Shown piece after piece: positions 3,793 to 47,720 of a stretch of 64,000 nt of DNA. Each line of letters opens with the position of its first letter. Position 1 is the first letter of the stretch. A program made the translations under genes and the position numbers. The DNA comes from Candidatus Saccharimonadales bacterium (lineage in GTDB: Bacteria > Patescibacteriota > Saccharimonadia > Saccharimonadales > JAUPVS01): positions 6,430 through 70,429 of the forward strand of contig JBDSDR010000023.1 in NCBI GenBank assembly GCA_039920385.1. Reading direction: 5' to 3'. The notes below the pieces were generated by a model. That model saw nothing but the letters and a program-made list of their open reading frames with translations. It was not told the origin of the DNA and did no database searches.

Positions 3793-3814
3793 AACTGTTT
3801 TGATTATATCACTT

Positions 3815-4114
3815 TTATCTGTTTTGCGGGGGTTGGGTGGGGTTCAAAATCTGACGACTAAGGTTGCGGCTCTCCCCGTCCAAAATGGCCGCGAATCTCT
3901 GTCGAGCGGCGTCCTCGCGAGTCGCAATCGCCGCTTCGATGTCATGGTAGACGCCTTCTGCCCAGATCTCCGTGGTATCACCGTGCATCTCGGCTGGAGG
4001 GAAACCTTTTAGCCACTCCTTAGCAGCATATAAATCAGCTAGCTCAGGATCACCGTAAGAGGCTTCGAGAGCCTCTTCGGAATGACCGTGTTCAACAAAA
4101 TAGTGCTGTATCAT
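3815..4114 (-). CDS. Hypothetical small acidic protein (99 aa)
   Basis: Longest ORF in this gap. A -10-like TATAGT lies 6 nt upstream of the ATG. No recognisable motif. Confidence 0.45.
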   Translation of the reverse strand: MIQHYFVEHGHSEEALEASYGDPELADLYAAKEWLKGFPPAEMHGDTTEIWAEGVYHDIEAAIATREDAARQRFAAILDGESRNLSRQILNPTQPPQNR

Positions 4115-7084: not shown

Positions 7085-9223
7085 TTAGCCTTTCTTATCT
7101 TTGAGCTCTCTGGCAACTGCCTTCATGGATAGTTGTAGACGGCCTTTATCGTCGATGGCCAGCAGTTTTACATCAACTAAGTCGCCTTCTTTCACGACAT
7201 CACTGACACGCTCAACACGCTCTTCTTTAAGTTCACTGACATGAACTAGACCATCTTTACCGGGCATTATTTCGACAAACGCACCAAAGTCCATGACTGT
7301 TTTAACTGGGGCTTTGGTATAAATCTTGCCAACTTCAGGCTCGGCAACTAGGTTTTGGATAAACTCTTTAGCAGCGTCAATCGACTTTTTGTTAGGGCTA
7401 GCAATAAAGACCAAACCGTCATCCTTGATGTCGATCTCGGCACCAGTATCGGCGATGATGCGATTAATCATTTCGCCGCCCTTGCCAATCACTTCACGAA
7501 TTTTATCTGGGTTAATCTGAATTGACTCGACACGAGGCGCATATGGGCTCATCTCAGCCGGCTTACTTATAGTCGTAATCATATGCTTGAGAATGTGGTT
7601 ACGGCCGTCCTTACCCTGCTCCAAAGCTTGCTTGAGCACTTCTATTGGCAAACCATGAACCTTCATGTCCATCTGAAGTGCAGTAATACCCTTTTCGGTA
7701 CCAGCTACCTTAAAGTCCATATCGCCAGCAAAGTCTTCGGCATCGGCAATGTCACTTAAGATGATGGGCTTGTCGCCGTTCATCATCAGACCCATGGCAA
7801 TACCACTGACCGGGGCTTTAAGAGGCACACCGGCGTCGAGTAATGCCAAACAACTAGAACAGGTTGCCGCCATGCTGGTTGAACCGTTTTGGCTCATAAT
7901 TTCGGTGACGGAACGGATGGTATATGGGAATTCTAGTTCGGTTGGCAATACAGCAGCTAGAGCACGTTCGGCTAGGTAACCGTGGCCAATTTCGCGGCGG
8001 CCTGGGCTTCCGAGTCGCTTAACTTCACCAACGGTATAGCCAGGAGCGTTGTAGTGGTGGAAATAGCGGCGTTCGCCCTCTTTTTCCATGGTGTCGATCA
8101 GTTGTACGTAACTTAACGGTGCAACTGTAACAATGTTTAAAGCTTGGGTTAAGCCACGAGTAAAGATGCTTGAACCATGGGTTCGTGGCAACACGCCAAC
8201 TTCGCTGCTGAGTTCGCGAACTTCGGTTAACTTACGACCGTCGGGGCGAATCCCCTCTTCGACAATGCCCTGACGGACATCTTTATGAAGGGCCAGTTGG
8301 AAGGCATCATTGTATTCGTTTTTAAGTTCACCGTAGGCTTCCTCGCCAATTTCTTCGACGAAGTGATCCTTCATTTGGTCACGCAGTTTGGCAACTAAGT
8401 CGTTGCGTTCTGGATATGCCCGGCGCAAGTCGGCACCTAATTTACCAGCTACCCAAGTTTCAACCCGTTGCTGTATATCAGTATCAGGCAAACTAAGTTG
8501 GTAGTCTTGCTCCGTTACGCCAACCTTTTTGGCTAGTTCTTGTTGCAACTTGATCGCTGGTTGCATAGCCTTCTGTGCAAAAGCGATGCCTTCAAGAACT
8601 TCTTCTTCAGTGGCTTCGTTAGCACCAGCTTCGACCATCATGACACCGTTTTCGGTACCGGCTACAACTAGGTCGAGTTTACCATCGAGTTCTTCGGGGG
8701 TGGCAAAGGCTTTAAACTTGCCGTCAACCATGGCAACACGCAAACCAGCCACAGGGCCGTCAAATGGCGCGCCAGTTAGCATAAAGGCGGCGCTAAGGGC
8801 GATCATAGCCACCATGTCGGGGCGGAAGTCTGGATCCATACTTAAGACGCTGGCCACACCCTGAACTTCGTGCCTATAGCCTTTTGGCCATAGTGGGCGG
8901 ATTGGGCGATCGATAATGCGACCAATCAAGATAGCATCGTCACTAGGGCGACCTTCGCGCTTAATGTAACGACTGCCGCTAATCTTACCGGCAGCATACA
9001 TCTTCTCTTCGTAATCAATGCTTAATGGAAAGTAATCGAAGCCCTGCAAAGGCTTAGCACCAACCATAGTGCTGGCTAAAACTACGGTATCACCGTAACG
9101 AGCCACGACTGAAGCAGTGGTTCTAAAGCCTAAGCGGCCGACTTCGAGACTGAGGGTGCGTCCGCATAGCTCGGTTTCGACTTTAATAATTGGTTTACCA
9201 GTTGGGTTAATGGTTTGTCCCAT
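7085..9223 (-). CDS. pnp: Polyribonucleotide nucleotidyltransferase (PNPase)
   Basis: Two RNase PH domains, a KH domain (GKGGEMINRI) and an S1 domain. I place the start at Met32 of the track ORF (MGQTINP...), which is preceded by GAAAGGA. The track start at 9316 would add a non-conserved extension. Confidence 0.93.
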   Translation of the reverse strand: MGQTINPTGKPIIKVETELCGRTLSLEVGRLGFRTTASVVARYGDTVVLASTMVGAKPLQGFDYFPLSIDYEEKMYAAGKISGSRYIKREGRPSDDAILIGRIIDRPIRPLWPKGYRHEVQGVASVLSMDPDFRPDMVAMIALSAAFMLTGAPFDGPVAGLRVAMVDGKFKAFATPEELDGKLDLVVAGTENGVMMVEAGANEATEEEVLEGIAFAQKAMQPAIKLQQELAKKVGVTEQDYQLSLPDTDIQQRVETWVAGKLGADLRRAYPERNDLVAKLRDQMKDHFVEEIGEEAYGELKNEYNDAFQLALHKDVRQGIVEEGIRPDGRKLTEVRELSSEVGVLPRTHGSSIFTRGLTQALNIVTVAPLSYVQLIDTMEKEGERRYFHHYNAPGYTVGEVKRLGSPGRREIGHGYLAERALAAVLPTELEFPYTIRSVTEIMSQNGSTSMAATCSSCLALLDAGVPLKAPVSGIAMGLMMNGDKPIILSDIADAEDFAGDMDFKVAGTEKGITALQMDMKVHGLPIEVLKQALEQGKDGRNHILKHMITTISKPAEMSPYAPRVESIQINPDKIREVIGKGGEMINRIIADTGAEIDIKDDGLVFIASPNKKSIDAAKEFIQNLVAEPEVGKIYTKAPVKTVMDFGAFVEIMPGKDGLVHVSELKEERVERVSDVVKEGDLVDVKLLAIDDKGRLQLSMKAVARELKDKKG

Positions 9224-9359
9224 AGTGTCCTTTCGGGGAGTAGTGTTGGTTGCACGGGGCAAATCTATAAATGGCCTCTTGTGCGGGTGTGCCAAGTAAG
9301 ATCTGTTACTGTACAACCAATACCAATGTTAGTGAGCTTTTTAATGTGCACAAGCTTGG

Positions 9360-9378
9360 GCGGCCACGACGCGGCCGC
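9360..9378 (-). promoter_or_regulatory. GC-rich stem-loop between rpsO and pnp (possible processing or attenuation hairpin)
   Basis: GCGGCC (9360-9365) pairs perfectly with GGCCGC (9373-9378). No U-run follows. The position matches the rpsO-pnp intergenic hairpin known in other bacteria. Confidence 0.35.
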
Positions 9379-9393
9379 GCCAGTCTACGCAAA

Positions 9394-9660
9394 TTAGCGG
9401 CGAATTTTAAGCTTTTCGGTGATTTCTAGGTATTTGTTGCTGTCTTTTTTAGCTAAGTAACGGAGTAGGCGCTTGCGTTGGCCAACCATCTGCAAAAGTC
9501 CCCGGCGAGCCATGTGGTCTTTTTTGTTGGTTTGAAGATGCTCAGTTAGCTCGGCGATGCGGCTAGTCAAAATACCGACCTGTACCTCTGGTGAACCAGT
9601 GTCTTTGGGGTTGGTTTGTAAATCTTTGATGATAGTAGCTTTTTTCTCGGTTGTAATCAT
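9394..9660 (-). CDS. rpsO: 30S ribosomal protein S15
   Basis: 88 aa with [29 protein letters not shown], the S15 signature. Conserved rpsO-pnp synteny. Confidence 0.97.
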
Positions 9661-9714
9661 GTATTTCCTTATTCCTTTGATAACAGTTAGAGGTTGGTGA
9701 TGACGTTAGACCCA

Positions 9715-9763: not shown

Positions 9764-10462
9764 TCAGTTGCTTACTTGTAGGCTTTGATAAATTGACTCT
9801 GAGCTTAATCTGTCTACAGGTAGAGCCTCTTTGATATCAAAATCACTGATTTTAGTGCGGCGTAACTGGCTGGTGTAGGCACCAGTTTTAAGAACTTCGC
9901 CGATGTCCTGAACCAATGATCTGATATAAGTCCCGCTCGACACGGCAACGGTAAATGAAAGCTCGGGATATTTGTACTCAACATCAGTAATTTCGTAAAT
10001 TTTAACCAGCCGTGACTTCATTTCTGGTACTTTGCCGTCTCGGGCGATTTTGTAGGCACGCTTGCCATCTATTTTTACGGCCGAGTAAATAGGCGGAACT
10101 TGGCTAATTTCACCCTTAAACTGCTCTAAAGCGGCCATAACAGCATTTTTTGGAGGTTCTACAGAGGAAACTGTAGTTTTCTCCCCTTCCTCATCACCTG
10201 TGGTACTGGTTTGACCCAAACTTGCCGTAACTTGGTAAGTTTTATCGAGCTTGGTAAATTCCTCGGCTTTTTTGGTGTAGTCACCGAGCATAACAATCAT
10301 CAAGCCAGTTGCTAAAGGGTCTAGGGTGCCAGCATGACCAACTGGAAAACGTTTTTTATTGGTGGTATTGAGGCCTGAATCCTGAATAATATGGCGAATT
10401 TTGTTAACCACATCAAAACTAGTCCAGTTTAGCGGTTTATCGATAAGTAAGTAGCCATTCAT
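9764..10462 (-). CDS. truB: tRNA pseudouridine(55) synthase TruB
   Basis: N-terminal GYLLIDKPLNWTSFDVV and the catalytic motif GHAGTLDPLATG. Confidence 0.93.
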   Translation of the reverse strand: MNGYLLIDKPLNWTSFDVVNKIRHIIQDSGLNTTNKKRFPVGHAGTLDPLATGLMIVMLGDYTKKAEEFTKLDKTYQVTASLGQTSTTGDEEGEKTTVSSVEPPKNAVMAALEQFKGEISQVPPIYSAVKIDGKRAYKIARDGKVPEMKSRLVKIYEITDVEYKYPELSFTVAVSSGTYIRSLVQDIGEVLKTGAYTSQLRRTKISDFDIKEALPVDRLSSESIYQSLQVSN

Positions 10463-12096
10463 TACTGAGATGGGGGCATTGGCATCGGCGGTGGTACCGG
10501 TGGCGGAGCCGTTGGATCACCGACGCTAGCCGTTGGGTCGGTTGGCTGGCTAGGCGGCAATAAGCTAGTTGGGATATTAGGGTTTACGCCATTGGTATTT
10601 GGCGGAGCGCCAAACGGAGTTGGATTGGCTGGCGGGTTTAGATCGACAGCCGGCGAGGCATTTAAGCGTTCTAAGGGGTTAAGTGGCGCGTTGGTGGGTT
10701 GAGCCGAGATTGCCTCGTCAACAGCTTCGCGAGCTTCTTCGATTACCTCAGCTTTAGGCTCAGTCGTATCGGCCAGCGGTTTTTCATCTAAATGTGGGCT
10801 CGACACTGATTCTTCGATGCCACTCAAAGTGGTACCAACACTTCTAACCGGTTCTCCCGACAGGCTGGTTGGTCGGTTCAGGATTGGCGGTGGTGGTGTC
10901 TGGCTATTAGCTGACGACAGTGAGAAAGGGTCCGTAGACGGCTCATTCTGAAGATGCTCAGGCTGACTATTAGCAGTCAGCTGACCGCCTAAGCTAGGCG
11001 GTTGCCAGGCCATATTGCCGGTTGGTTTAGGACTATCGTTAGTGGTAGATGCTGGGGTTCTATCAACTGCCGAACCGATGGCGGTGGCATGAGTCATAAT
11101 TGGCGGGTTAATCATGCTTTTGGGAGTTTCGCCTAGTAGGTCATTGCTGTCTTCGACTTTTTCCTCTGGTTTAGAAACTGGTTCCGAAACCGGTAGTTCT
11201 TCAACTGGAGCTGGCAAAACTGCTTCTGGGGTCTCGGTTTTAGCTGGCTTCTTATCAGTTTCTTGGTGAGAAATCTGCAACAAACCCGTACCATCATCGA
11301 CATCATCTTGAGTAGCCTCATCGGTAACGGCATCTTTTACTGGAATTGGCTGCTTGTCTTCTAGCTTGCTGGCAATTAGTTGCTGGTTGGCTCCAGCGCT
11401 CATAAGCTCCGAGGCCAGCGACATAGTCTGGGGGCTAGTTTTATCATTGCTAAAGCGGTCGGTTTCGGCGACGATTCCAGTCATAAAGGCTGTTGCCATT
11501 TGACCATCAATCGCTTCGGTTACAAGACCCTTGGTCAAAAGGGCTAACATTTCTGACAAACTGCTGGAGTTAAGATCTACCCAGTTGATTGCGCCCAAGT
11601 TTCCCTGGTCCTTATTGTTGACCGATATAACTGTGGCATCATGCAGAATTCGGCCGTGGGCAACAATCGCCTGATCAAGTTCACTTCTTTCGTGCACGCC
11701 CAGTGCCAAAACGGCGTCAACATTAAAATCACCTTGGCTGAAGTCGAGGTCTTTATCAGAAAGACTTGTTCTGTAAGGAGTGATGAAGATTTTGACAACC
11801 TTATCCTCTACCTTGTAGCGCAACTTGTCGGCTTTGGCTTTATCGAGAGCAATAATGAAGTCCCGCAAACTGTCGGTGTTCTTTTCGATAGTCGCTTCGG
11901 GCTTTAGAAACTCAATAGTTGATGGTATCGCCCCACTAAATACAGCGGTAGCATGTTTTTTTAAGTGGTTGAGGACTAACGTGATACCAATACAGGCCGC
12001 CAATTGGTCAACCGACGGGTTGGCACTAACAGTAATTAGCACATTGTTGGCTTCTTTTAAGCGGTCAATAATTTGTTGTCGAGCGTTCTGGTCCAT
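10462..12096 (-). CDS. DHH/DHHA1 phosphoesterase (NrnA-like) with a ~290-aa Pro/Thr/Ser-rich C-terminal tail
   Basis: The N-terminal ~250 aa show a DHH-family layout. The remainder is low-complexity and ends in PPPVPPPMPMPPSQ. Confidence 0.7.
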   Translation of the reverse strand: MDQNARQQIIDRLKEANNVLITVSANPSVDQLAACIGITLVLNHLKKHATAVFSGAIPSTIEFLKPEATIEKNTDSLRDFIIALDKAKADKLRYKVEDKVVKIFITPYRTSLSDKDLDFSQGDFNVDAVLALGVHERSELDQAIVAHGRILHDATVISVNNKDQGNLGAINWVDLNSSSLSEMLALLTKGLVTEAIDGQMATAFMTGIVAETDRFSNDKTSPQTMSLASELMSAGANQQLIASKLEDKQPIPVKDAVTDEATQDDVDDGTGLLQISHQETDKKPAKTETPEAVLPAPVEELPVSEPVSKPEEKVEDSNDLLGETPKSMINPPIMTHATAIGSAVDRTPASTTNDSPKPTGNMAWQPPSLGGQLTANSQPEHLQNEPSTDPFSLSSANSQTPPPPILNRPTSLSGEPVRSVGTTLSGIEESVSSPHLDEKPLADTTEPKAEVIEEAREAVDEAISAQPTNAPLNPLERLNASPAVDLNPPANPTPFGAPPNTNGVNPNIPTSLLPPSQPTDPTASVGDPTAPPPVPPPMPMPPSQ

Positions 12097-14683: not shown

Positions 14684-15277
14684 CTAAAAAATACCGTTGC
14701 TAGAACCGCCACTAGTGGACAGGCTAACACCTTGGGTGACCTTGGTATAATTAGGGATTTGGGACTGAAATAAGCTGTTAGTTAGAGCAACATTACCGCC
14801 AAATGACCCCTTAGTACATGAGGCTGTCCACAGATCAATCACATCTTTAGTAGAATCAACCAACTTGTAGTAAGAACGACTGCCGGTTGGGCAAATTGCT
14901 TGAGAGCTAATTTTACTGTCAATTTTTCGCTCCACCGTAAAACCAGCGCGAGTTATGGCAGCCAAAAAATCACTATACGAATTTACGTCGTTAGGATAAG
15001 TTTGACTGGTTAGCACCTGCCCTTCGTAGCCAGTGAAGACTGTAACGTTACGGGTTAGCGGACTGATGGTTATCTTAATTGAGCGATGGTTTTCAAGTGC
15101 ATTAATGGCGCCGCTAATAGTAAAGTCGACAGCTGCGTTGTTGTTTGTCTTATAATCAGACAGTTTAACTACCTTATGACTAGGGGTAGTAACGGTTTTT
15201 GAACCGCCTCTGTTAAATACGACAATTCCAAAAATTATCAATAACAGTACGCCGAGAGAAATTAAAAAATACTTCAT
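14684..15277 (-). CDS. Membrane-anchored extracytoplasmic hypothetical protein
   Basis: N-terminal TM helix (FLISLGVLLLIIFGIVVF) followed by a ~170-aa domain with two Cys. Confidence 0.6.
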   Translation of the reverse strand: MKYFLISLGVLLLIIFGIVVFNRGGSKTVTTPSHKVVKLSDYKTNNNAAVDFTISGAINALENHRSIKITISPLTRNVTVFTGYEGQVLTSQTYPNDVNSYSDFLAAITRAGFTVERKIDSKISSQAICPTGSRSYYKLVDSTKDVIDLWTASCTKGSFGGNVALTNSLFQSQIPNYTKVTQGVSLSTSGGSSNGIF

Positions 15278-18037: not shown

Positions 18038-19345
18038 TTATATGTAATCCATCAGTCGTTCTAGCCCCATTGCCGGATGACGCAACTTAGTAAGCGCCCG
18101 AGACTCAATCTGCCTAATACGCTCACGCGTAAGTTTAAACTCCCTACCAACTTCCTCGAGCGTTTTGCTTTCGCCATTTTTGTCGACCATACCAAAGCGG
18201 AACCTAAGAATTGCCTGTTCTCTTTCGTCCAACCGCTCTAGTGCCCGATTTAGTTCTGTAGTTAAATCGTTATGTTTAATCATGTCGTCGTAGCCAGTTG
18301 TGGAAGCCGGGTCGGCCGTAGATTCGCCAAGCGTGCGAGAATTAGGGTCATCACCTAACTCCCGATCTAACGAGTCAACCTGACCCTCACGTCGGATACG
18401 AATCATATCAAGCACCTTCTGTTCGTCCCATTCAAGATCTTCGGCAAGTGCCAAAATATCTTTATGTTTATCCTCCAGAGCAAGTCTGGCTTCGGCTCGG
18501 CTAAGTTTGGTAAAATCATCGTTGACATGAACCGGCAGTCTAATCTCCCTACTAGTAGTATCAACCCCCCGACTAATTGCTTGGCGGATCCACCAGGTAG
18601 CGTAGGTGCTAAACTTAAAACCTTTACGATAGTCAAACTTATCCACCGCATGGTCCAAACCAAGATTACCTTCCTGGATTAAATCCATTAAAGGTAAGCC
18701 CCGATTTTGATGCTTCTTGGCGATTGAAACTACCAAACGAAGATTAGCATGCATAAAATCTTCCTTGGCACGCAGACCATCCCGTACCCGTCGCTCTAGG
18801 GCTCGTCGCTGGCTAACTGATAAATCAGGTTCGGCTAAACTGCTTTGGGCCTCTAGGCCTTCGGTTACCCGTTTGCCCAGGCGCGCTTCGCCAGCCTTAT
18901 CAATCAGAGGATACTGACTAATTTGCTTTAGGTACATCCTAACTAAATCGTCGCCCGATACTATGCGATTAGCGCGGGGCGTAACCGGTTTGTCTTCTCC
19001 GGGGGCTACGTATGTGGGCTTTTTGGCAGGTTTAGGCTTAGGGGCCTGCGCAGTTTTTGGTACAGCTATGGGTACGGGTGTTTTAGCCTCAACGGGCTTG
19101 ATTACTCGAGATGGGGCTGGGCGTAAATCTACTGTTACCTCTGTGGCCTCAAAAACAATCGGTTCATCGCTAGTCACAAACGGACACAACAAAAAATCAT
19201 CAATTGACTCTTCATCTATTTCTGGCTCGATTAGTGGGTTAAAGTCTAGCTCGGCAATCGATTTTAGGGCGACAACTGGTATAAACTCAGCAATCGCGGC
19301 CTGTTTAGCGTAAGCAGCTTCAGCGATGTCCAGTAATTCATTCAT
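18038..19345 (-). CDS. RpoD-like sigma-70 factor, second copy, with a divergent acidic and Pro/Lys-rich N-terminus
   Basis: Region 2 reads [39 protein letters not shown]. Region 4 reads [29 protein letters not shown]. The primary rpoD is the dnaG-linked copy at 25839..27008. Confidence 0.88.
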   Translation of the reverse strand: MNELLDIAEAAYAKQAAIAEFIPVVALKSIAELDFNPLIEPEIDEESIDDFLLCPFVTSDEPIVFEATEVTVDLRPAPSRVIKPVEAKTPVPIAVPKTAQAPKPKPAKKPTYVAPGEDKPVTPRANRIVSGDDLVRMYLKQISQYPLIDKAGEARLGKRVTEGLEAQSSLAEPDLSVSQRRALERRVRDGLRAKEDFMHANLRLVVSIAKKHQNRGLPLMDLIQEGNLGLDHAVDKFDYRKGFKFSTYATWWIRQAISRGVDTTSREIRLPVHVNDDFTKLSRAEARLALEDKHKDILALAEDLEWDEQKVLDMIRIRREGQVDSLDRELGDDPNSRTLGESTADPASTTGYDDMIKHNDLTTELNRALERLDEREQAILRFRFGMVDKNGESKTLEEVGREFKLTRERIRQIESRALTKLRHPAMGLERLMDYI

Positions 19346-21122
19346 TAACTTTACGAGCGGAGTAGACTTTGGCCAAAGCGACGGTTAGGACATTCTCGAT
19401 GTTGCGATGAGCAGCGGCCAACTGCTTACTATAGCGGCCTTTAGTGGACTTAACAGATAGTGGCGGTAAAGCTTTGTCGGGCAAACCAAGCAAACTGTAC
19501 AGAACTGTCATTTCAAGTTCATCAAGCTGAATATCGGGATGAACTAGCGGATCGGCGGCCATAAATTCTACCAAACTTCGAATATCATCTCTAAGTTCGG
19601 CGATATCTTTACCTTTAAAACTATCCAGTACTGAATTATTGAAGATGGCTTTTAGGTCGTCGAATTCTTTGGCAGCGGTAATCTTAAGGGTTTGAGCAAG
19701 TAGTTCGACTGCTTCGGGCAAGCTTTCGGCAGTTACCAATTTTTCGTTGGTGCGCGGCACTTTAGGTTCTGGTTTAGGTGAAATCACCTCTGGAGTAACG
19801 GATGCTACTGGGGCTTCTACGATTTCTTCATCGATATTAGCTGTTACCGTTGACTCCTCCCGGCCGTTGGCCAGAATTTTGTCTAGTTCCTCAGTGGTGA
19901 TATTGTCTTTGATAGCTTTAGGTAGATCGCTCATCGCTACCTCGAGAGCTCGGGTATTGGTGTCGTATCTGGTTGATATATCGTAGTAGCTTTCGCCCAT
20001 ATAACGAGCCATGAGTTGCTCGCAACGGTCGGCCCGTGGGATAGCATTACCAGTCTTGGTTGGTATTGCTCCATAAACTTTAAGGACGTCTGCTAATAGT
20101 TGCTGGCCCTGAGCCGCGTCTAGCGACAATCGGGCAATTTTTTCACCAAAAATTTTTATCAATAGATTTTCTTGGCTTCTAGTCAGTTCTGGTTTATCGG
20201 CTGGCTCGTCTACGACATCAATATTGTCATCCGGTACCGGTATGACTTCTGCAACATCTGGCTCTACGGCATCAGTTTCAACTGACTCGTCCTCGGCCAA
20301 TGTTTTTTGCAGGATTTCCATCAATGTCTCTTTACCGAGACCTCGTTTTATGCTGTCCGGTAAGGCCTTATTTAGCGATTGGCTGATGGAACCTACCGAT
20401 GAATCATATAGTTTCGCCAATTCAGTAAAACCCGCACCGTTAAAACGCGCCATCAACTGTTCACAGCGAATTGATTTAGGCATATCGGTACGTTTCTTAA
20501 CAGGGATGACGCCGTACTGCTCGCTCACCTTACCTAGCAACTGGCGACCTTGGGCCACAGTTATGTTTCGACCAACTACCTGGGCGCCAAAAATTTTTAT
20601 CAAAATGGTTTCCTGCACCCTAGAGAGTATTTCGGATTCCGACAACTCATCATTATTAGTGCCGGCTTCGTGGGGGTCATCTGTTATAGCCGGATCAGTC
20701 TCTAGAGTTGGGGCTTCTTCTACCGGTTCGACAATGACTTCCACCGGTGCTGGTTCGACCGGTTCTTCCGGCTCAGCTACGGAAACCGGGGACTTTTCTA
20801 CTACATCATCTTTTTTAACCTCTACCGACAACTCAACTACCGGTACAATCTGCAAAGTCTGACTGGCCGTGTCACGACCTAGCAAATCGACGGCTGCACC
20901 AATGTGCTCAGCCAAGGCTTTACGTTCTTGGAAATCGTCTATACTGTCGATTTGGGCGGCTAGCGCCACTACGAATGAGCCAGCTGCTTCTGGTGGCAAG
21001 TCTAAAGCCCCAGCCAAATCTAGCCCACGTTGTTTGGCCATACCTCCATATAAGTCATGGGCAAACTGTAATGCTTCGATTTCTCTGTCGCTGAAGATCG
21101 TATCGTTAGTTGGATTAGCCAT
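19338..21122 (-). CDS. Hypothetical acidic protein with two tandem ~105-aa repeats containing sigma-region-4-like HTH segments
   Basis: Internal duplication: LIKIFGAQVVGRNITVAQGRQLLGKVSEQYGVIPVKKRTDMPKSIRCEQLMARFNG... versus LIKIFGEKIARLSLDAAQGQQLLADVLKVYGAIPTKTGNAIPRADRCEQLMARYMG... The stop overlaps the sigma gene start by 8 nt. Confidence 0.7.
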   Translation of the reverse strand: MANPTNDTIFSDREIEALQFAHDLYGGMAKQRGLDLAGALDLPPEAAGSFVVALAAQIDSIDDFQERKALAEHIGAAVDLLGRDTASQTLQIVPVVELSVEVKKDDVVEKSPVSVAEPEEPVEPAPVEVIVEPVEEAPTLETDPAITDDPHEAGTNNDELSESEILSRVQETILIKIFGAQVVGRNITVAQGRQLLGKVSEQYGVIPVKKRTDMPKSIRCEQLMARFNGAGFTELAKLYDSSVGSISQSLNKALPDSIKRGLGKETLMEILQKTLAEDESVETDAVEPDVAEVIPVPDDNIDVVDEPADKPELTRSQENLLIKIFGEKIARLSLDAAQGQQLLADVLKVYGAIPTKTGNAIPRADRCEQLMARYMGESYYDISTRYDTNTRALEVAMSDLPKAIKDNITTEELDKILANGREESTVTANIDEEIVEAPVASVTPEVISPKPEPKVPRTNEKLVTAESLPEAVELLAQTLKITAAKEFDDLKAIFNNSVLDSFKGKDIAELRDDIRSLVEFMAADPLVHPDIQLDELEMTVLYSLLGLPDKALPPLSVKSTKGRYSKQLAAAHRNIENVLTVALAKVYSARKVNE

Positions 21123-21144
21123 TATTACCCCTCTATTTACAGCT

Positions 21145-21172
21145 ATTGTAATCTACTAACGACCACTTGCAA
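21145..21172 (-). promoter_or_regulatory. Sigma-70-type promoter for the 594-aa protein and sigma operon
   Basis: On the minus strand: TTGCAA (21172-21167), a 16-nt spacer, then TACAAT (21150-21145). GAGGGG SD precedes the ATG at 21122. Confidence 0.5.
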
Positions 21173-21183
21173 GCATGAGCAAT

Positions 21184-22289: not shown

Positions 22290-23249
22290 CTACTGGAGCT
22301 CAGCTTGTAAATTTAACATTTTGGAGTAGAACTCGTGTAACTCACCAGGAATCTGGTTAATGGCTGTTGGTTCAGCAATTGGTAGGCCACGTACATCAGC
22401 TAAGGTTTGCCGACCATACATACCGACATCAAAGAATCGGTCAGATCGTAAGCCAGCCCGGATTGTATCGACGGCACGTGAGGCGTATGTAGTACTGGTA
22501 TCAAGACCGACTGATGATTCTTCATCGCCACAAGCTGTTAATACATCCCCTATGAAGCTCATCAAAGCTGCACTATCCGGCTGATTCCGATATTTATTTT
22601 CACCAGCTTCGTTAACAAAATCTTCACGATCAACACGAAGCACCATCACTGGTTGGCCGCGCAATTCGCCAATTTTAACCAGTTGGCCGGTCGTGTCTTG
22701 GATCAACTCGAAGTGGTTACTAATATCATAACCAAACGGGAGTACTTCATCTTCTTGAGCTACAAAATCTGGCTGCTGTTCTGCGAGTAATCTGACGAGA
22801 TCGTATTCCGTCTTACCAGACATCTCCACATCATGCTTTTCATACATATAGTCAACTTCATCCTGGCCCAGTTTTCGATTCTCTGAACCAGCAAAGATTA
22901 TCGTTTCACCAGCAGGCCCAATTTTGGCTTCGGCTTCGACCTTCCAAGCTTTACCTCCCTCTTTCACCCGTATTTTGGCAGTTCCTAGAACATCACGTTC
23001 GGCGCCTATACCAAAGCGCTCAGCGATTTCTCTTAGCTGAACTGCTTGCGTATCAGATAGAGGAAGACCTTCCGAGTCATTCCGTGGCGTTGTTGGCTCT
23101 GGAAAAACTTCGAGCGGGTTACCGTCGGTACTTCCAGTTACAATTTCGACGGCTTCCCCCATCCACTGAGTGCGTTCCGCCAAATAGGCTTCGACTTCAG
23201 CACTTTGCATATGTTCTGGTGATGGGCTTGGTTTATCAGTGTTAGTCAT
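22290..23249 (-). CDS. Hypothetical protein (319 aa)
   Basis: Long ORF with an AGGAA SD and its own promoter. Weak resemblance to the 24200..25186 product (see findings). Confidence 0.6.
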   Translation of the reverse strand: MTNTDKPSPSPEHMQSAEVEAYLAERTQWMGEAVEIVTGSTDGNPLEVFPEPTTPRNDSEGLPLSDTQAVQLREIAERFGIGAERDVLGTAKIRVKEGGKAWKVEAEAKIGPAGETIIFAGSENRKLGQDEVDYMYEKHDVEMSGKTEYDLVRLLAEQQPDFVAQEDEVLPFGYDISNHFELIQDTTGQLVKIGELRGQPVMVLRVDREDFVNEAGENKYRNQPDSAALMSFIGDVLTACGDEESSVGLDTSTTYASRAVDTIRAGLRSDRFFDVGMYGRQTLADVRGLPIAEPTAINQIPGELHEFYSKMLNLQAELQ

Positions 23250-23402: not shown

Positions 23403-24203
23403 ATGGTTGATTTAACAGCTGCCGGATTATCAAAAACAGAGGCCAATTGCTATCAGGCCCTAGTAACCAAGGAAGATTGGCAACCCAGCAAACTTGCCGA
23501 ATATGTCTCCGAGTCACGCACAAATATGTATAAAATTTTAGATAAATTGGTGTTACTTGGCTTAGCCGAAAAGTTCAATAAAGCCAAAAAGATCCACTAC
23601 CGAGCGGCTAACCCTTCCCGGCTTTTGCAGCTGGCTCATGAAACTCGCGCCCAACAAGAAGCAGCTCAAAAAGAACTTGAGTTGGGTGCACAAAGCCTTA
23701 TGCGAGAGTATATAAAAACTAATGAACAGCCAGGGGTTCAGTACTACCAAGGGCAGACTGAAATCAGAACGATATTTGAAGAAATTGAGAATTCTAATAG
23801 TGAGGTAGTTTTTGTTCACACCTTGGCCGGTACCGACTTTTACGGTTTTGACGAGATGCACAAACTGCGCATTAAAGCCGCCAAGAGTGGTGTCCCGCGC
23901 CGTGGCTTAACCCCCGACACCAAACTGGCCAGCTACGATTACAAAGAAAAAGACCACTTAGTAAAACTAACCCGCACCTGGTTAGCAGCCGACGATTACA
24001 CGGCTCCAGTCGAATGGGGAGCCTTCGATAATAAGCTCTACATCATTTCTTATGGCGAAGAAGCCCTTGGTATGATCATCGAAAGCCAGCAAATTTCTGA
24101 CGCCTTTAAACAAATTTATAACTTACTCGAAAGAGGCCAAAAATTGCAGCCCGATTACGAGCATTTACCTAAGTTAGCGCAACGAAAGGTTCGTACCGAC
24201 TAA
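23403..24203 (+). CDS. TrmB-like winged-helix transcriptional regulator
   Basis: N-terminal GLSKTEANCYQALVTKEDWQPSKLAEYVSESRTNMYKILDKLVLLGLAEK matches the TrmB HTH pattern, followed by a C-terminal effector-like domain. Confidence 0.7.
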   Translation: MVDLTAAGLSKTEANCYQALVTKEDWQPSKLAEYVSESRTNMYKILDKLVLLGLAEKFNKAKKIHYRAANPSRLLQLAHETRAQQEAAQKELELGAQSLMREYIKTNEQPGVQYYQGQTEIRTIFEEIENSNSEVVFVHTLAGTDFYGFDEMHKLRIKAAKSGVPRRGLTPDTKLASYDYKEKDHLVKLTRTWLAADDYTAPVEWGAFDNKLYIISYGEEALGMIIESQQISDAFKQIYNLLERGQKLQPDYEHLPKLAQRKVRTD

Positions 24204-25186
24204 ATCGTTTGCTTACTGTCTTCGTATAGATTGCGAGCAATCTCGCCTAAGAACAGATAGTCTTTGTTTGAGTCTGGATAGGCGGCCGGACCTGCCGCTA
24301 CAAGCCGGACGTCCTGACGACCATTCTGACTTAACACCTCACTAACAACCCGTGCCGTGCGTCGAATATAAGGGTTACTTGATACAAAAGCCACTCGGGC
24401 ATTGTCGGGAGGTGGAACATCCTCGAGCCATTGCTGGGCACAAGCTTCGGTAGTGTGGCGTGGCTCACCCTGGGGACGCTGAACCGCTGGCGTGTTCAAA
24501 AGCGTAATATCGTAGTGATCCCCTAAAAGTTCATAGCGGCTAATTGGGACTGTGGCAGAACCAAATCGCAAGTGTGCTCGGTGTAAACTTAGATTGCCCA
24601 GGTTATGCAGACCAGCTAGGCGCATAAGTTCGGTTTCACTGAGACTGGGCCGGTTATGGCGCATTGCGTTAAACCACGGGTCGGTCCCGGCTAATGGCTG
24701 GTCATCAATGTCGGCTTTAGCCTTATGCACAAACCAAGTTTCGAGCTGCTTATTTAAAGGTCGCCGGCCGCCCCAAAGAATAATACCCCCATCAGCTTTA
24801 AGGCTGACCGATTCGGACTGCAGAGCGTCTTTTAAAAAACTCAGACGTAGCTCATTGGCCCGTTGCATACCGCCCAAAACGATAATTTGGTCATATTCCC
24901 CTTCTGGTATTGGTACGGCTTCGACCAAACCCATTTTGGTATAGATCTCCTTGGCAGCGGCCGATTGATCATTATCCAGCTTAGCTGGGCTTTCTGGACT
25001 AAAGTGATCACCTTTTACCCATGGCTGGGTATCTTCAACTATATCGGCAAGATTATCACTCCACTGACTTTGGCTATCTAAAATAGTGAAAAGCTCTTCA
25101 AGCTCAGGCTGAAAAGTATCAAAAAAACTCTCTGCGGCAAGATTTAAATGTTCACCGTGGGTGACATGAGTCTCAGTGGTTGACAT
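24200..25186 (-). CDS. Hypothetical protein, possibly DUF218/YdcF-like
   Basis: IIVLGG and FVSSNPYIRRTARV segments. I place the start at Met9 of the track ORF (MSTTETH). Extended -10 TGCTATAAT lies 9 nt upstream. Confidence 0.55.
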   Translation of the reverse strand: MSTTETHVTHGEHLNLAAESFFDTFQPELEELFTILDSQSQWSDNLADIVEDTQPWVKGDHFSPESPAKLDNDQSAAAKEIYTKMGLVEAVPIPEGEYDQIIVLGGMQRANELRLSFLKDALQSESVSLKADGGIILWGGRRPLNKQLETWFVHKAKADIDDQPLAGTDPWFNAMRHNRPSLSETELMRLAGLHNLGNLSLHRAHLRFGSATVPISRYELLGDHYDITLLNTPAVQRPQGEPRHTTEACAQQWLEDVPPPDNARVAFVSSNPYIRRTARVVSEVLSQNGRQDVRLVAAGPAAYPDSNKDYLFLGEIARNLYEDSKQTI

Positions 25187-25276
25187 AACCTGTATATTAT
25201 AGCATAACAACTATGTTTTTGCAAGTTACTCTTCCCTGTTATGTACTAAAATCCTGCAATCTAGTAAGATGAAGCA

Positions 25277-25846
25277 ATGACTAGAAAACACATCATCGCC
25301 TTTGTTGGAATGCCTGGCAGCGGCAAAGGTACTTGCACGACATATCTACACCAAAAGCACAGCTTCCCAGTTGTGCACTTTGGAAACATGGTTTACGAAG
25401 AAGTGCAGCGGCGCGGCCTAGATAATGTCAAAGACGAGCAGTTCGTACGCGAAGACATGCGCGAGCAGGAAGGTAAAGCAGTGCTTGCCAAACATGTCGC
25501 CCGAAAGGCCGACGAATTTTTTGAAGAAGGTAGCGACACAGTTGTTCTCGATGGCTTATATAGTTGGAGCGAACTAAAGTTTCTTAAAGATAAATACGGG
25601 GCTGACCTGAGTGTCATTGCCATCACCGCCCCCCGCCAAGAACGCTATAGGCGCATTCTCGCGCGCAAAGATAGCCACCGCAAATACACTTCAGCCTCGC
25701 AGATTGAAGAGCGTGATATCAGTGAAATAGAGAATCTCGAAAAGGGCGGACCAATCGCCTTCGCCGACTTCACTCTGGCTAACCATCAATCTTCCGAGCA
25801 CCTCTTAAGCGACCTAGACGAAGTTGTTACAGAAATTCTTACTTAA
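25277..25846 (+). CDS. P-loop nucleotide/nucleoside kinase-like protein (adenylate or dephospho-CoA kinase-like fold)
   Basis: Walker [12 protein letters not shown] within a ~190-aa kinase-size protein. Substrate unknown. Confidence 0.6.
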
Positions 25847-27008
25847 TATAATCGTGCAATTTACGAGCATCTTTGTGCTTGCGTAGTTTAGCCAGAGCTT
25901 TAGCTTCGATCTGGCGAATACGTTCGCGGGTAACACTAAACTCTTGACCAACTTCTTCGAGAGTATGGCTCTTGCCATCTTCTAGGCCAAACCGGAGTTT
26001 AAGAATCTTCTGTTCGCGCTCTGTCAGAGCACCGAGCATGTCTTTAACATGTTCTTTTAGCAATTGGCCTGTGGCGGCTTCTTCTGGCGAGACCGAATCT
26101 TCATCTTCGATAAAATCACCCAACACTGAATCTTCTTCGTCATCGCGTACAGAGGCATCAAGGCTGGAAATATCCTGCTTAATCTTCATGATGTGCTCGA
26201 CTTTTTCGACTTCGATTTCCATTTCTTTGGCAATTTCTTCGTTGGTTGGTTCGCGGTTTAGTTCTTGGGTTAAACGACGTTGAGTACGAAGCAGTTTGTT
26301 AATAGTTTCAACCATGTGAACCGGTATACGAATGGTGCGGGCTTGGTCGGCAATGGCACGAGTAATCGCCTGGCGAATCCACCAGGTGGCGTAGGTACTA
26401 AACTTAAAGCCTTTGTCTGGGTCAAACTTTTCGACAGCTCGTAATAGCCCGGTATTACCTTCTTGGATGAGATCTAGAAGGTCTAAACCGCGACCAACGT
26501 AGCGCTTGGCAATACTAACCACCAAACGCATGTTGGCTTCGGCCATTTTATCTTTAGCACCCTTGTCACCGGCTACGACTTGGTTGGCTAGCTTAAGTTC
26601 TTCTTCGGAGTTTAAAAGTGGGATTTTACCAATTTCTCGTAAATACAATCGAACCGAGTCGTCGGCAATATCGTCCAAATAAGTTTGGTCATCCAAAACA
26701 ATCTCTTCTTCGTCTTCGTCCTCGGCCCATTCGCTAGTAAAATCAGCGGCATTTGGCTCGGTAGCACTAACAATTGATAGATTTTGCTCTGCTAGCTGAA
26801 TATACAGGGCGTCTAGAGCGTCGACGTTTTCGGGTGCATCAGGGATCACAGCATAAATATCACGTTGATCAATTTTTTTATCTTTTTTGGCTTTAGCTAG
26901 TAACTTTTTGGTCACAGCTGCAAAATCGGCCACCGGTACTTGGGTAACTGGCTTGGTTGATTTAGCTGATTTAGCTGGTTTTGTCGGCTTGTCGGCTTTT
27001 TTTGCCAT
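25839..27008 (-). CDS. rpoD: Primary RNA polymerase sigma factor RpoD
   Basis: [41 protein letters not shown]. Region 4 reads [27 protein letters not shown]. Located immediately downstream of dnaG. Confidence 0.95.
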
Positions 27009-28753
27009 TAAGCATCTCCTTCTTTAGTTAATTTAAGTAGAGCGTCGAGCGCTTTTACTTTAGTTAAGATTTGTTCAGTTTTCTGTTCATCGGCTTCGTT
27101 AAGCGCAGCGGTAAGGGGAGCTTTTTTAGTTTTGACGTAATTTTCTATCAGGCGAACCTGCAGTCGAGCGGCTTCTAAACGAAGCTCTAAAGTCTCGAGG
27201 TCTTGATAGAGTTCCTCAAAGATTACTGACAATACTTTAACATAGTCTGCCAGTTCTGCCAATTCTGACGGGGCTTTGCCAGCTCCGTTAAAGTCAGAGT
27301 TTTCCTGCAAAAATTTTAGTAATCTCTGGCCTGGCTCTTCGGGCAACATTTCGGCACTCAAAGGTTGCAGATAGGGGCGCAAATTTGGCACCGTTAAAGC
27401 TAAGGCCAAAAGATGATTTTGTGACTTAATAACTTCTGGTGATAAGATAGGTTTGGCAGCACTGGCTACAGTCTTTTTTAGACGAACCGGCTGATTTTTA
27501 TCATGCAGCTTGCTAAGTAAAGCCTCTTTGCTTACCCCTAGGGTTTTACCCAGCTTTTCTAGATAATGTTCTTGCTCGACTTGGTCCTGCAAAGCTTTGA
27601 TCACCGCCAACATAACATCGCTATACTGGCGTTTGTCGGGGGCTTTTGTCAGATCTAGACGTTTTTGGTAAACCCGCATCAGCCAATCGAGGGCGTACTC
27701 CGGCTTATCAATTACCTCTTGCCAGGCTTTGGGGTTTTTTTGGATGAGTTCATCAGGGTCTTTGGCCCCCACAACAGTTACAATACTCAAATTAACGCCG
27801 ACCTTGCTGGCTAACGGAATCGCTCGCTCGGTGGCGGCAATACCAGCATTATCTTGGTCAAAGGCCAAGCGGACATCGTGTACAAACCGGCCCAAAGTTT
27901 TAAGATGGTTCTCGGTTATCGCCGTCCCGGCCGTTGCAACTACATTAGTAACCCCTACTTGATGGCTAGCCACCACATCCATATTTCCCTCCACAATTAC
28001 GGCGTAGCCGCTCTTGCGGATAGTTTCTTTGGCCAGGTGCAACCCAAAAACATGCCGGCTCTTGTCGTAGAGTGGTGTTTGAGGTGTGTTTAAGTACTTA
28101 GGGGCATTTGGTATATCTTCTAGCAAGCGGCCGGTAAAACCAATCACCTGACCCTGAGCATCCATTAAAGGAATCATGATCCGGCTGCGGAACATATCGC
28201 TAGCTCGCCCTCGCTTGGTGGTCAGACCGGCGGCTGTCAGGTCTGCCTCGCTAAAACCTTTCTTAACCCCATAATCAGTTAAAGCCGATCCATTATTAGG
28301 CGCATAGCCCAAACGGAACGATAGCGCCGTGGCCTTGTCGATTTTGCGTTGCTTGAATACATAATTGATTGCTTCCTGGTTTTTACTGAGGTGAACTTGG
28401 TAAAAGCGGGTCGCCAGTTCGTTGGCATCAGCCAGTTTTTGTTTCTGCTTACCGTCACCGGCCCGGCCTTTGTACTGGGTTAGTTCAACGCCGGCTTTGC
28501 GCGCCAAAAGCTCTAAAGAACCTTTAAAATCGAGACCTTCGACCTCCATAATAAAGCTGAACATATTACCGCCTTTGCCCGACGAGAAATCGTGCCAAAT
28601 CTGTTTTTCGGGGCTGACCATAAAACTGGCAGTTTTTTCATTACCAAACGGGCTGAGCCCCTTAAAGTTGCGACCCGCCCGTTTTAGCTCAACGTATTGA
28701 CCAATAACGTCCTCGATCGCTAGTCTTTGTTTGATTTCCTCTACAGCATCCAT
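27008..28753 (-). CDS. dnaG: DNA primase DnaG with a degenerate zinc-binding domain
   Basis: The N-terminal primase ZBD scaffold [32 protein letters not shown] aligns to CPFHxEKTPSF...HCFGCG. TOPRIM region VIVEGNMDV...AFDQDNAG. Confidence 0.9.
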
Positions 28754-28811
28754 GTTTTATTATTGTACGCTATCTGGTCAAACAGGGGTTGCTTATGCTT
28801 AAATAGAAGTT

Positions 28812-29441
28812 ATGCAGCTCAATCAACCAATTCCTCCTAGCTATCCTGGCGGCAACGAACAATATGACTTCATCCTTAACGGTGGTCAAAAGGCCAAAAA
28901 AAGCCTTGTTCCCAGAGGTGGCTCCCGTAAACAACGCACCATAATAGCTGTTGTTGGGGTTGTGGTGGTACTTTTCCTATTTGGTATCATCTTATCTTTA
29001 GTGCTGTCGAGCGGTAGTGGTTCCAAGCAGTTAATGCTCGATGTAGCCAAAACCCAAACCGAAATCGTTCGGGTCAGTAAGGATGGTAGCTCCAAGGCGC
29101 GAGACTCAGCTACGCAAAGCTTTGTGCAGACTGTAAACATAACGGTATCTAGCGACCTCAATCAAACGACTACCCTGCTGACAAAACAAGGTATAAAAGT
29201 TGACCCTAAGGCTATGGCCCGCGGTGCCAGCAGTGAAACCGATGCTACGTTATCATCGGCCGAACAAGCCGGCCGCTATGACGAGGCAATAACAACAAAT
29301 CTGGAAGCTAGTCTAGCCGCTTACAAAACCCAGATTAGCCAAGCTTTTGCTAAAGTTAGTTCCGCCAGTCAAAAGAAGCTGTTGCAGCAGCTATTCGCTA
29401 ATGTTGAGGCGCTGATTAAGAATCAACCGACCAGTTCGTAA
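28812..29441 (+). CDS. Membrane-anchored hypothetical protein with an N-terminal YDFIL motif
   Basis: MQLNQPIPPSYPGGNEQYDFILNGG..., then a TM helix (IIAVVGVVVVLFLFGIILSLVL) and an extracytoplasmic helical domain. Confidence 0.6.
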   Translation: MQLNQPIPPSYPGGNEQYDFILNGGQKAKKSLVPRGGSRKQRTIIAVVGVVVVLFLFGIILSLVLSSGSGSKQLMLDVAKTQTEIVRVSKDGSSKARDSATQSFVQTVNITVSSDLNQTTTLLTKQGIKVDPKAMARGASSETDATLSSAEQAGRYDEAITTNLEASLAAYKTQISQAFAKVSSASQKKLLQQLFANVEALIKNQPTSS

Positions 29442-38128: not shown

Positions 38129-38545
38129 TTATTCGTCGCTGGCTGGACCAGTGTTGGGTAAAGCAGGCCCAGCCGGGGCTGGCGCTGGACTAGGCGTTGA
38201 TGTTGGCGCTGTGGGATTGCCAGAATTACTGCCAGTGTTGTCGCCAGAATCATCAGATGGAGTCTCGTTTTTGGCGGGGGATTGCTCTTGGTCGCCAGAT
38301 TTTAACTGAGTTGTAGCTGGCTCATTTTTAGAAGAAGAGTCAGTTAGCTTATGCCAGGTCCACCGGCCCGCCCAAAATAATCCCAGAACGATTAATAGAG
38401 TGACTAGGAAAGCAGCGATAGATAGAAGCCAAACCACCCAACCCTGACGGTTGCCACCAGCCTCGTAGTATTCTTTGACTGCCTTCGGTGAAACCTTATC
38501 TTTAAGGCTGTCTTCTGAGTTTTTTTTACGATTAAATGGCCACAT
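38129..38545 (-). CDS. Single-pass membrane protein with a Pro/Ser/Thr-rich tail
   Basis: TM helix WVVWLLSIAAFLVTLLIVLGLFWAG. The low-complexity C-terminus ends ...LPNTGPASDE. Confidence 0.5.
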   Translation of the reverse strand: MWPFNRKKNSEDSLKDKVSPKAVKEYYEAGGNRQGWVVWLLSIAAFLVTLLIVLGLFWAGRWTWHKLTDSSSKNEPATTQLKSGDQEQSPAKNETPSDDSGDNTGSNSGNPTAPTSTPSPAPAPAGPALPNTGPASDE

Positions 38546-38615
38546 ACCCCGACTCCTCTTTAGTTTTATCTACAGTAGTCCGGTATTGGACAGTTTGCAA
38601 GCAGTAGCGAATTGG

Positions 38616-47419: not shown

Positions 47420-47720
47420 TATAACATGCTTGCGCTTTTATGTCAATATTGCACGGGGCTTTGTTTTGGGAGTATGCTAATGCTTGAAAACAAACACTGA
47501 GATAGAACAGAGCAGGCCTGCCAGTTCTCAGAAAATTCTTAAGAGGTTATTAAAGAGCGTTCCACAGAGAGGGAACTTTATTTAATAATGTTTTAATAAT
47601 TCATATTCACGTGAACTTATCCCTGTTAGTTAAGAACTTTTTAATTAAGATCTAATTAAATGTTAGTGATTTAACAGATATGGTAGACTGGAGGCAGTTA
47701 AGATAGCGGGAAGAATTGCA

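Follow-up and report, generated by a model that had tools for sequence, protein, structure and literature searches.

Gene X (19338..21122, minus strand) and the sigma factor gene sigma2 directly downstream of it (18038..19345, minus strand) lie in a 64,000-nt stretch of contig JBDSDR010000023.1 of a Candidatus Saccharimonadales bacterium, hereafter called the window. Saccharibacteria live as epibionts, with reduced genomes that encode very few regulators of transcription, and to our knowledge almost nothing is known about the control of their gene expression. We tentatively propose that sigma2, an alternative sigma factor resembling those of actinobacteria, has an accessory component specific to Saccharibacteria and that X is its free-standing form. 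X would then be a detachable accessory subunit of the sigma2 system, which we consider its best reading. The original prediction, made from the DNA alone, had named both open reading frames (ORFs), and both were present, coding for 594 amino acids (aa) in X (isoelectric point 4.5, net charge -43) and for 435 aa in sigma2. It had also described an overlap of 8 nt between the stop codon of X and the start codon of sigma2, which we read from the sequence as ATGAATGA (19338..19345, minus strand) and which couples the two genes translationally. X contains two tandem modules of about 115 aa, module 1 (aa 161-275; 20298..20642, minus strand) and module 2 (aa 308-421; 19860..20201, minus strand).

An X-type module was found at the N-terminus of three sigma2-type Saccharibacteria proteins, two of them encoded by tandem genes in locus L032 and the third in L038, and in these fusion proteins the module occupies the place of sigma region 1.1. 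The fused modules were detected by local hmmsearch (E = 1e-6 to 1e-4), and hhalign against the module profile gave probabilities of 90-93% with E values of 2e-6 and 4e-7 over 103-107 columns. Fusion of components that are separately encoded elsewhere is classical evidence for joint action. Because X is made together with sigma2 and the same module is fused onto a sigma2-type sigma in relatives, X and sigma2 almost certainly cooperate in transcription initiation. The gene order in L038, rpoD-kinase-motif-module:sigma2-...-polA (where motif denotes the promoter motif described below), places the fusion gene at the chromosomal position of X and sigma2 in the window. In L032 the order is dnaG-rpoD-motif-module:sigma2, with module:sigma2 occurring twice; the tandem paralogous genes (2649-4094 and 4440-5909 in motif-oriented coordinates) directly follow dnaG-rpoD, and from such a pair the arrangement of X and sigma2 could plausibly have evolved. 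A third locus, L021, has the order motif-sigma2-polA and encodes a sigma2 without a module.

The pairing of X with a downstream gene was also kept among relatives. In each of the 13 family loci examined (12 with DNA and one as a gene table), a same-strand gene directly followed the X homologue, at distances of -17 to +8 nt in the 11 loci with DNA and a known partner start, despite protein identities of only 20-35% among the X homologues. As a rule this partner was a sigma factor; in one locus it was WhiB. The subfamily whose X homologues carry a C-terminal domain (C-domain) shares the synteny of the window, dnaG-rpoD-...-polyprenyl synthase-X-partner-polA, and its partners are a sigma2-type sigma (window, L004, and L006), a sigma2 interrupted by an in-frame TAG (L008 and L009), a 225-aa protein without known domains (L002), and a 139-aa WhiB protein with an N-terminal extension (L014). 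X homologues without the C-domain form the other subfamily, which has as partners a divergent small sigma (L013; region 2, 7e-5; region 4, 8e-5), a protein with a weak region 1.2 (L012), a region-2-like ORF followed by a protein with region 4 and two GerE helix-turn-helix (HTH) domains (L007), and a 534-aa protein with weak winged-helix matches (L010). All partners open with a short N-terminal helix motif, which reads DPLELAAxAIxKLRxxGLPT in the subfamily without the C-domain (z = 28 against shuffles) and takes a weaker form, L(D/Q)xAE...(F/L)(I/L)P, in the subfamily of the window (z = 4.2; 0 of 100 shuffles). In sigma2 this motif, common to the genes downstream of X homologues, spans aa 5-24 (LDIAEAAYAKQAAIAEFIPV; 19274..19333, minus strand), and we regard it as a candidate docking element for X. 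The 225-aa partner of L002 showed no significant relation to the C-domain (E = 0.027 in a tiny database). Partner swapping, suggested by the WhiB protein of L014, was down-weighted because this locus could equally well have arisen by an in-frame deletion that joined the 5' end of sigma2 to whiB; the gene order of L006 for comparison is sigma2-whiB-polA.

Two of the partner loci have unusual structures. The sigma2 orthologs in L008 (7347-8582) and L009 (5363-6598), from two assemblies, contain a single in-frame TAG (...RELTRC*QEEMPDEE...), which yields an ORF with regions 1.2 and 2 and another with regions 3 and 4 in the same frame; this could be a pseudogene, a genuinely split sigma, or a case of stop-codon readthrough. 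In L007, a 453-aa protein (8335-9696) with Sigma70 region 4 (5e-15) and two LuxR/GerE HTHs (8e-13) lies downstream of a three-module X homologue and is preceded by a 180-aa ORF, in another frame, that resembles sigma region 2; this is either an unusual sigma-like architecture or a frameshifted gene.

We next consider what the modules are. The two tandem repeats proposed originally were clearly recovered: aa 161-275 aligned with aa 308-421 at a Smith-Waterman score of 207 (shuffle mean 29, standard deviation 4.6, z = 38.6; 0 of 500 shuffles reached this score) and 37% identity. The nucleotide ranges first given for them correspond to aa 163-283 and 311-425, and the proposed conserved core was present as MPKSIRCEQLMARFNG and IPRADRCEQLMARYMG, with RCEQLMAR(F/Y)xG common to both. 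The further claim that the repeats resemble sigma region 4 was supported by family profiles but not by direct pairwise comparison of the X repeats with region 4 of the neighbouring sigma2 (z = 0.8-2.0, not significant). Among 55 family modules, Pfam matches were obtained to Sigma70_r4_2 (19; best 2.3e-6), Sigma70_r4 (12), HTH_23 (10), GerE (5; best 1e-3), and Mor (4). When the module profile was compared with PDB sequences, the LuxR HTH of VpsT (E = 0.0027) and region 4 of sigmaE (2h27; E = 0.0036, spanning the whole domain) were matched, with further matches to GerE (0.034), NarL (0.11), and several extracytoplasmic function (ECF) sigmas, and hhalign against region 4 of sigmas from the same genomes gave E = 1e-4 at a probability of 56%. 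X's own modules had no Pfam match to region 4 or GerE. Module 1 matched Pfam Mor at E = 0.02-0.07 (13.6-15.3 bits, below the gathering score of 24.9 bits), module 2 had no match to Pfam Mor, and phrog_532 ('late transcriptional activator') matched over module 1 with E = 3e-4. The AlphaFold2 model of module 1 was confident (predicted local distance difference test score, pLDDT, 94.9) and contained five helices, the last three forming a helix plus a helix-turn-helix. A Foldseek search of the module against PDB and viral models returned no significant match; LuxR-type regulators, the DnaA C-terminal domain, an ECF sigma, PhyR, and Mor were among the non-significant ones. On this profile evidence the last ~65 aa of each module fall into the sigma-region-4/LuxR HTH class; the assignment comes from sequence profiles, not from the fold search, and the region-4 likeness appears at the level of the family profile only.

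The two modules of X are closer to each other than to any other family module (26% identity or less), and module 2 appears as an insertion relative to the closest relatives of X, which have no second module; the duplication is therefore lineage-specific.

The full-length model of X consists of four domains, each predicted at a pLDDT of about 95, with disordered acidic linkers between them (net charges -17, -13, and -6). The N-domain (aa 8-96; 20835..21101, minus strand), an acidic three-helix bundle with a net charge of -8, is the hallmark of the family. It is followed by module 1, in which two N-terminal helices precede the HTH (net charge +6), by its duplicate, module 2 (net charge -1), and by the C-domain (aa 455-590; 19353..19760, minus strand), which is confidently folded into seven helices. 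The N- and C-domains belong to no known family, have no consistent Pfam match (30 N-domains were scanned), and have no relatives among PDB sequences. The N-domain was considered as an analogue of region 1.1 and rejected at the level of sequence profiles, with an hhalign probability of 0.15% against region 1.1 of four local RpoDs; Sigma70_r1_1 was likewise not among the Pfam families matched by the 30 N-domains. The third repeat-like segment that had been proposed near the C-terminus of X was not supported. This segment did not resemble the X repeats (z = -0.4 and 0.8 against shuffles; hhalign probability 0.4%), and the last ~55 aa of the C-domain, which align with sigma region 4 in the register first proposed, did so without significance (E = 0.007-0.008, probability 5%; local hmmsearch against sigma2 region 4, E = 0.0045), so that a region-4 copy at this end was rejected as well. 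X had no Sigma70_r2 match at E <= 1 in Pfam and no match to a sigma model in NCBIfam; the lack of region 2 means that X is not a sigma factor. Nor did Pfam, NCBIfam, or PADLOC reveal a known anti-sigma domain (HATPase-type, zinc-binding, or NepR-like) or a receiver combined with a sigma-like domain. As a whole X matched no curated family, the weak Mor and PHROG matches over module 1 being the sole matches, and by their curated thresholds it would fall outside the Mor, LuxR, and anti-sigma families.

An exhaustive HMMER search of 1.84 billion representatives yielded 41 family proteins, and the family architecture was defined by iterating the module profile within these 41. It comprises a ~90-aa N-domain (40 of 41), acidic or Pro-rich linkers, one to three modules of ~115 aa, and a C-domain of ~135 aa in 18 of the 41. 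X matched the family hidden Markov models with E = 4e-30 for the N-domain and 7e-23 and 1e-24 for the modules, and it has the features that define the family, namely an N-terminal three-helix domain, at least one module, and a tightly coupled downstream gene. It is the sole representative that pairs two clear modules with a C-domain (the second module of P0019 is marginal, E = 0.005). The N- and C-domains are conserved across tens of divergent representatives, with E values down to 1e-47, and all named loci of the family are from Saccharibacteria/Saccharimonadales. Word-indexed homologue searches with X and with the family alignment returned nothing beyond X itself, and a search with X alone among GTDB representatives found no relative. 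With about 40 cluster representatives the X family is rare, and its N- and C-domains are novel and uncharacterised. In agreement with the original view that no equivalent had been described, none was found in Pfam, NCBIfam, PHROGs, PADLOC, PDB sequences, or literature searches.

In sigma2, Pfam recognized region 1.2 (1e-8), region 2 (3e-19), and region 4 (1.5e-17) above the cutoffs and region 3 weakly (0.017); region 1.1 was absent, and the score against the NCBIfam RpoD equivalog was 299 against a cutoff of 555. Because it lacks region 1.1 and falls below this cutoff, sigma2 is a group-2-like alternative sigma rather than a primary one. The RpoD-type regions 2-4 first assigned to it therefore hold for regions 2 and 4, with region 1.2 in addition, but less well for region 3; the unique N-terminus was borne out by the absence of matches over the first ~130 aa. 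Sigma2 is 42% identical to the housekeeping RpoD, and its best database matches are actinobacterial primary sigmas of the RpoD/HrdB type (~47% identity), beyond which the homologue search found no further orthologs. The recognition helix in region 4.2, TRERIRQIE, is identical to that of RpoD, and any extra specificity must therefore come from elsewhere.

A second feature shared with actinobacterial sigmas lies in the C-terminal loop of sigma2, where His423-Pro424 (KLRHP; 18074..18079, minus strand) is equivalent to His516-Pro517 of Mycobacterium tuberculosis sigmaA. The dipeptide, as KL(R/C)HP, is invariant in all seven aligned sigma2-type proteins (from the window, L004, L006, L021, L032, and L038), whereas the housekeeping RpoDs of the same genomes have KLRKHK at this position. 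In M. tuberculosis, His516 and Pro517 of sigmaA insert into the Fe-S pocket of WhiB1 and are essential for binding (PMC6954389). Sigma2 may be the WhiB-compatible sigma of these organisms. WhiB genes adjoin sigma2 in L006, replace it in L014, and share its promoter class in L039 and L043.

WhiB-domain proteins were seen in several metagenome-assembled genomes (MAGs) of Saccharibacteria/Saccharimonadales, in L006 (2785-3051; PF02467 in a precomputed annotation), L014 (8507-8926; Pfam Whib, E = 9e-19), L039, and L043 (in the latter two as the first ORF after the motif), and no WhiB gene was found in the 64-kb window. Actinobacteria are known hosts of Saccharibacteria, and a host-to-epibiont transfer of WhiB is worth testing. 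Two articles describe Wbl proteins as exclusive to Actinobacteria and their phages (PMC13013590, PMC6282962).

The promoter that had been predicted for X, TTGCAA-N16-TACAAT, was confirmed at 21172..21145 on the minus strand. The promoter of the X-sigma2 operon (21145..21180, minus strand) consists of a conserved block, GCTCATGCTTGCAA (21167-21180), which contains the -35-like TTGCAA (21167-21172), a 16-nt spacer, and the -10 hexamer TACAAT (21145-21150), located 22 nt upstream of the X ATG; a Shine-Dalgarno-like GAGGGG (21128..21133, minus strand; read from the sequence) lies between them, 5 nt upstream of the start codon. The block GCTnATGCTTGCA precedes X homologues at 11 of the 12 loci, in spite of protein identities of only 20-35%, and in the C-domain subfamily it is followed by N16 and TACAAT; the promoter class as a whole reads GCTnATGCTTGCA-N17-TACAAT. 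A scan for GCTNATGCTTGCA-N17-TACAAT over 596 Gb of species-representative genomes gave 35 matches against ~17 expected by chance. Of these, 17-18 came from Saccharibacteria/Saccharimonadales MAGs and the others were scattered over unrelated phyla, a strong enrichment of the exact long pattern in genomes of Saccharibacteria. Most Saccharibacteria loci have a start codon within 7-63 nt behind the motif, and the recurring genes that follow encode sigma2-type sigmas (L021, L032, and L038), WhiB-like proteins (L039 and L043), a secreted LTD-like protein (three loci), and a 214-aa protein (two loci).

The single occurrence of the exact 9-mer of the block in the window, and its presence before X homologues whatever the partner, had led us to consider it a private operator of X. 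This idea was rejected because the full promoter also precedes unrelated recurring genes and sigma2 genes without X; the motif instead marks a promoter class or regulon. In the window, a position weight matrix (PWM) scan found one further good copy in promoter position (38595-38608, minus strand), right after groEL, where GCTACTGCTTGCAA-N17-TACTGT is followed by a Shine-Dalgarno sequence and an ATG. The ORF behind it (38129-38545, minus strand), a possible regulon member, codes for a predicted membrane protein of 138 aa with a low-complexity Pro/Ser/Thr tail. A weaker copy (47476-47489, plus strand) lies in the long intergenic region before valS. A degenerate block also precedes the dnaG-rpoD operon of the window (28754-28815, minus strand; e.g. 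GCATAAGCAACC...TACAAT), and PWM matches of 12.6-12.8 bits occur about 30 nt before dnaG in L004 (589-602) and L008 (369-382); the housekeeping sigma operon may use a related form of the promoter. In many of the Saccharibacteria loci from the genome scan (L015-L046) no more than 7-13 nt separate the -10 hexamer from the start codon, so that transcripts from this promoter class would carry no leader or almost none, whereas X has a 22-nt spacer with a Shine-Dalgarno sequence.

If X is an accessory subunit of the sigma2 system, it would be made in a fixed ratio with sigma2 and would dock onto it, probably through contact of its N-domain and/or C-domain with the conserved N-terminal helix of sigma2. 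Docking would bring one or two additional region-4-like HTH modules to the sigma2 holoenzyme, and the modules would contact the promoter at the conserved GCTnATGC block, directly upstream of the -35 element or overlapping it, thereby adding specificity or strength to sigma2-dependent promoters. The promoter of the operon itself would be among the targets, resulting in positive autoregulation, and in the fusion lineages the same job would be done in cis. A DNA-reading role is suggested by the recognition helix that sigma2 shares with RpoD and by the basic HTH half of module 1 (+5), which is similar in charge to region 4 of sigma2 itself (+4). A broader form of this proposal, in which a Saccharibacteria holoenzyme has more than one region-4-type DNA reader (sigma2 plus one to three modules, in cis by fusion or in trans from an X docked on the conserved N-terminal helix of the sigma, reading GCTnATGC) and serves a dedicated promoter class including sigma2, X, and WhiB, we consider rather unlikely as it stands. 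If true, it would describe a detachable promoter-specificity subunit of variable copy number without a described counterpart.

Several observations weigh against the accessory-subunit proposal. Across the family the recognition-helix positions of the modules are poorly conserved, R59 and G69 alone being near-invariant, although the promoter block is itself conserved, and no fold search produced a significant match for the module. The net charge of module 2 is slightly negative, and the acidity of X as a whole would suit a protein-binding or DNA-mimicking role as well. The WhiB partner of L014 and the 225-aa partner of L002 could be deletion remnants of sigma2 rather than carriers of a modular docking tag. 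One family locus, L007, lacks the promoter motif. Furthermore, the promoter class stands before the L021 sigma2, which lacks a module and has no X gene directly upstream, and in degenerate form before dnaG-rpoD, so the block could have another reader, such as RpoD, a WhiB:sigma complex, or another factor.

The main rival, which we judge somewhat unlikely, is that X acts negatively, with its region-4-like modules serving as decoys or X as a whole serving as an anti-sigma that holds sigma2 inactive, occupies the beta-flap of RNA polymerase, or sequesters a factor that binds region 4, such as WhiB. In that case the acidic N-domain and linkers would behave as an autoinhibitory, DNA-mimicking region 1.1, and in the fusions the module would be an autoinhibitory domain built into the sigma. 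Anti-sigma/sigma pairs such as spoIIAB-sigF typically have a translationally coupled regulator upstream, in fixed ratio to the sigma, and the extreme acidity of X, the position of the fused module at the place of region 1.1 in proteins whose window counterpart lacks that region, the poorly conserved recognition helix, and the appearance of the PhyR sigma-like domain among the weak fold matches all fit such a role. However, X shows no likeness to known anti-sigma families in Pfam, NCBIfam, or PADLOC, its N-domain is not detectably related to region 1.1, and a decoy would leave one to three copies of a well-folded HTH, with a basic HTH half in module 1, unexplained. Sequestration of WhiB finds some encouragement in the WhiB-binding His-Pro kept by sigma2-type proteins and in the WhiB genes that adjoin or replace sigma2, but the modules themselves have no His-Pro tail. 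Judged by the fusions and by the conserved block beside the -35 element, an accessory that cooperates and reads DNA is at least as well supported as an inhibitor.

Two lesser rivals separate X from the function of sigma2. X may be an independent LuxR/sigma-region-4-type HTH repressor or activator with operators of its own, which shares the operon without contacting sigma2. The HTH class is established by the profiles, one homologue was auto-annotated by its source as a NarL/FixJ-family regulator, the Mor and phage late-activator matches point weakly in the same direction, and regulators with several HTHs are common. This account is nevertheless improbable, because the coupling to the downstream gene is tight in all 13 loci, the downstream genes share an N-terminal motif, the module-sigma fusions are hard to explain without a joint function, and X has no sensor or receiver domain. 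Still less credible, to the point that we would be surprised to see it hold, is the view that X is what remains of a duplicated module-sigma gene now in decay, which has lost regions 2-3, has little or no function, and ends in a degenerate region 4. The tandem module:sigma2 genes at the equivalent locus L032 and the region-4 register at the end of the C-domain are in line with decay, but that similarity is not significant, all four domains of X are confidently predicted, the N- and C-domains are widely conserved, and the reading frames are intact in every locus.

Among known systems, X comes nearest to two-subunit or accessory-dependent sigma systems and to sigma mimics, though none of these is related to it in sequence. 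The C-terminal ~65 aa of the modules share with region 4 of sigma/ECF factors and with LuxR/GerE the helix plus helix-turn-helix layout and the conserved Arg and Gly positions (R..Q......G.s..EIA). X differs from sigma region 4 in having two extra conserved helices before each HTH and a long helix after it, in lacking region 2, and in that its own modules stay below every Pfam threshold and do not conserve the residues with which sigmas contact the -35 element. Two-subunit or accessory-dependent sigma systems include Bacillus subtilis SigO-RsoA, phage T4 gp55/gp33, and the sigma appropriation by T4 MotA/AsiA. X and sigma2 would be like these in dividing promoter recognition between two co-expressed polypeptides and in having an accessory HTH protein that reads -35-region DNA beside the sigma. 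These systems have no sequence relationship to X, however, and sigma2 is complete (regions 1.2 to 4), so that X would add region-4-like modules rather than replace a missing domain. In PhyR-NepR-sigmaEcfG and the anti-sigmas, as in the window, a non-sigma protein with one or more sigma-like domains is encoded beside a sigma, and the sigma-like domain of PhyR is among the weak fold matches of the X module; X, in contrast, has no receiver, no region-2-like domain, no anti-sigma motif, and no library match.

The phage Mu late activators Mor and C are small HTH activators whose sites overlap the -35 element, and the weak matches over module 1 were to this group (Pfam Mor, PHROG 532). X nevertheless stays below the Pfam cutoff (15 against 24.9 bits), Mor was matched by 4 of the 55 family modules against 19 for Sigma70_r4_2, the Mor dimerisation domain is missing, and the setting is chromosomal and non-phage. 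Actinobacterial sigmaA/HrdB with Wbl proteins resemble the sigma2 side of the system in sequence (~47% identity), in the WhiB1-type His-Pro, and in the WhiB genes that adjoin sigma2 (L006) or take its place (L014), but sigma2 is a second sigma, lacks region 1.1, and occurs in Saccharibacteria, and X has no counterpart in the actinobacterial system.

The locus is a compact, testable regulatory unit that combines a host-like alternative sigma, an undescribed modular partner, natural fusions, a sharply defined promoter motif, and a link to WhiB, and it should interest those who study bacterial transcription as well as Saccharibacteria biology. Modules that read DNA beside the -35 element would represent a new way of extending sigma specificity, and modules that inhibit would represent a new anti-sigma architecture; either way, the X family gives the uncharacterised N- and C-domains a concrete functional context.

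Elsewhere in the window, the genuine dnaG-linked rpoD, originally put 7 kb away, was found at 25839-27008, directly after dnaG (27008-28753) and 6.5 kb from sigma2; it is a full housekeeping rpoD with region 1.1. A phage origin of the locus was rejected in view of the core chromosomal setting dnaG-rpoD...polA in all relatives, and a defence-system reading was rejected because the MzaA sigma matches reflect generic sigma similarity and lie well below the cutoff. Four sizeable ORFs of the neighbourhood, all on the minus strand, have no significant Pfam match (10462-12096, 544 aa; 22290-23249, 319 aa; 24200-25210, 336 aa; 14684-15277, 197 aa), and a relative of the 197-aa ORF also occurs in the polA locus L021.

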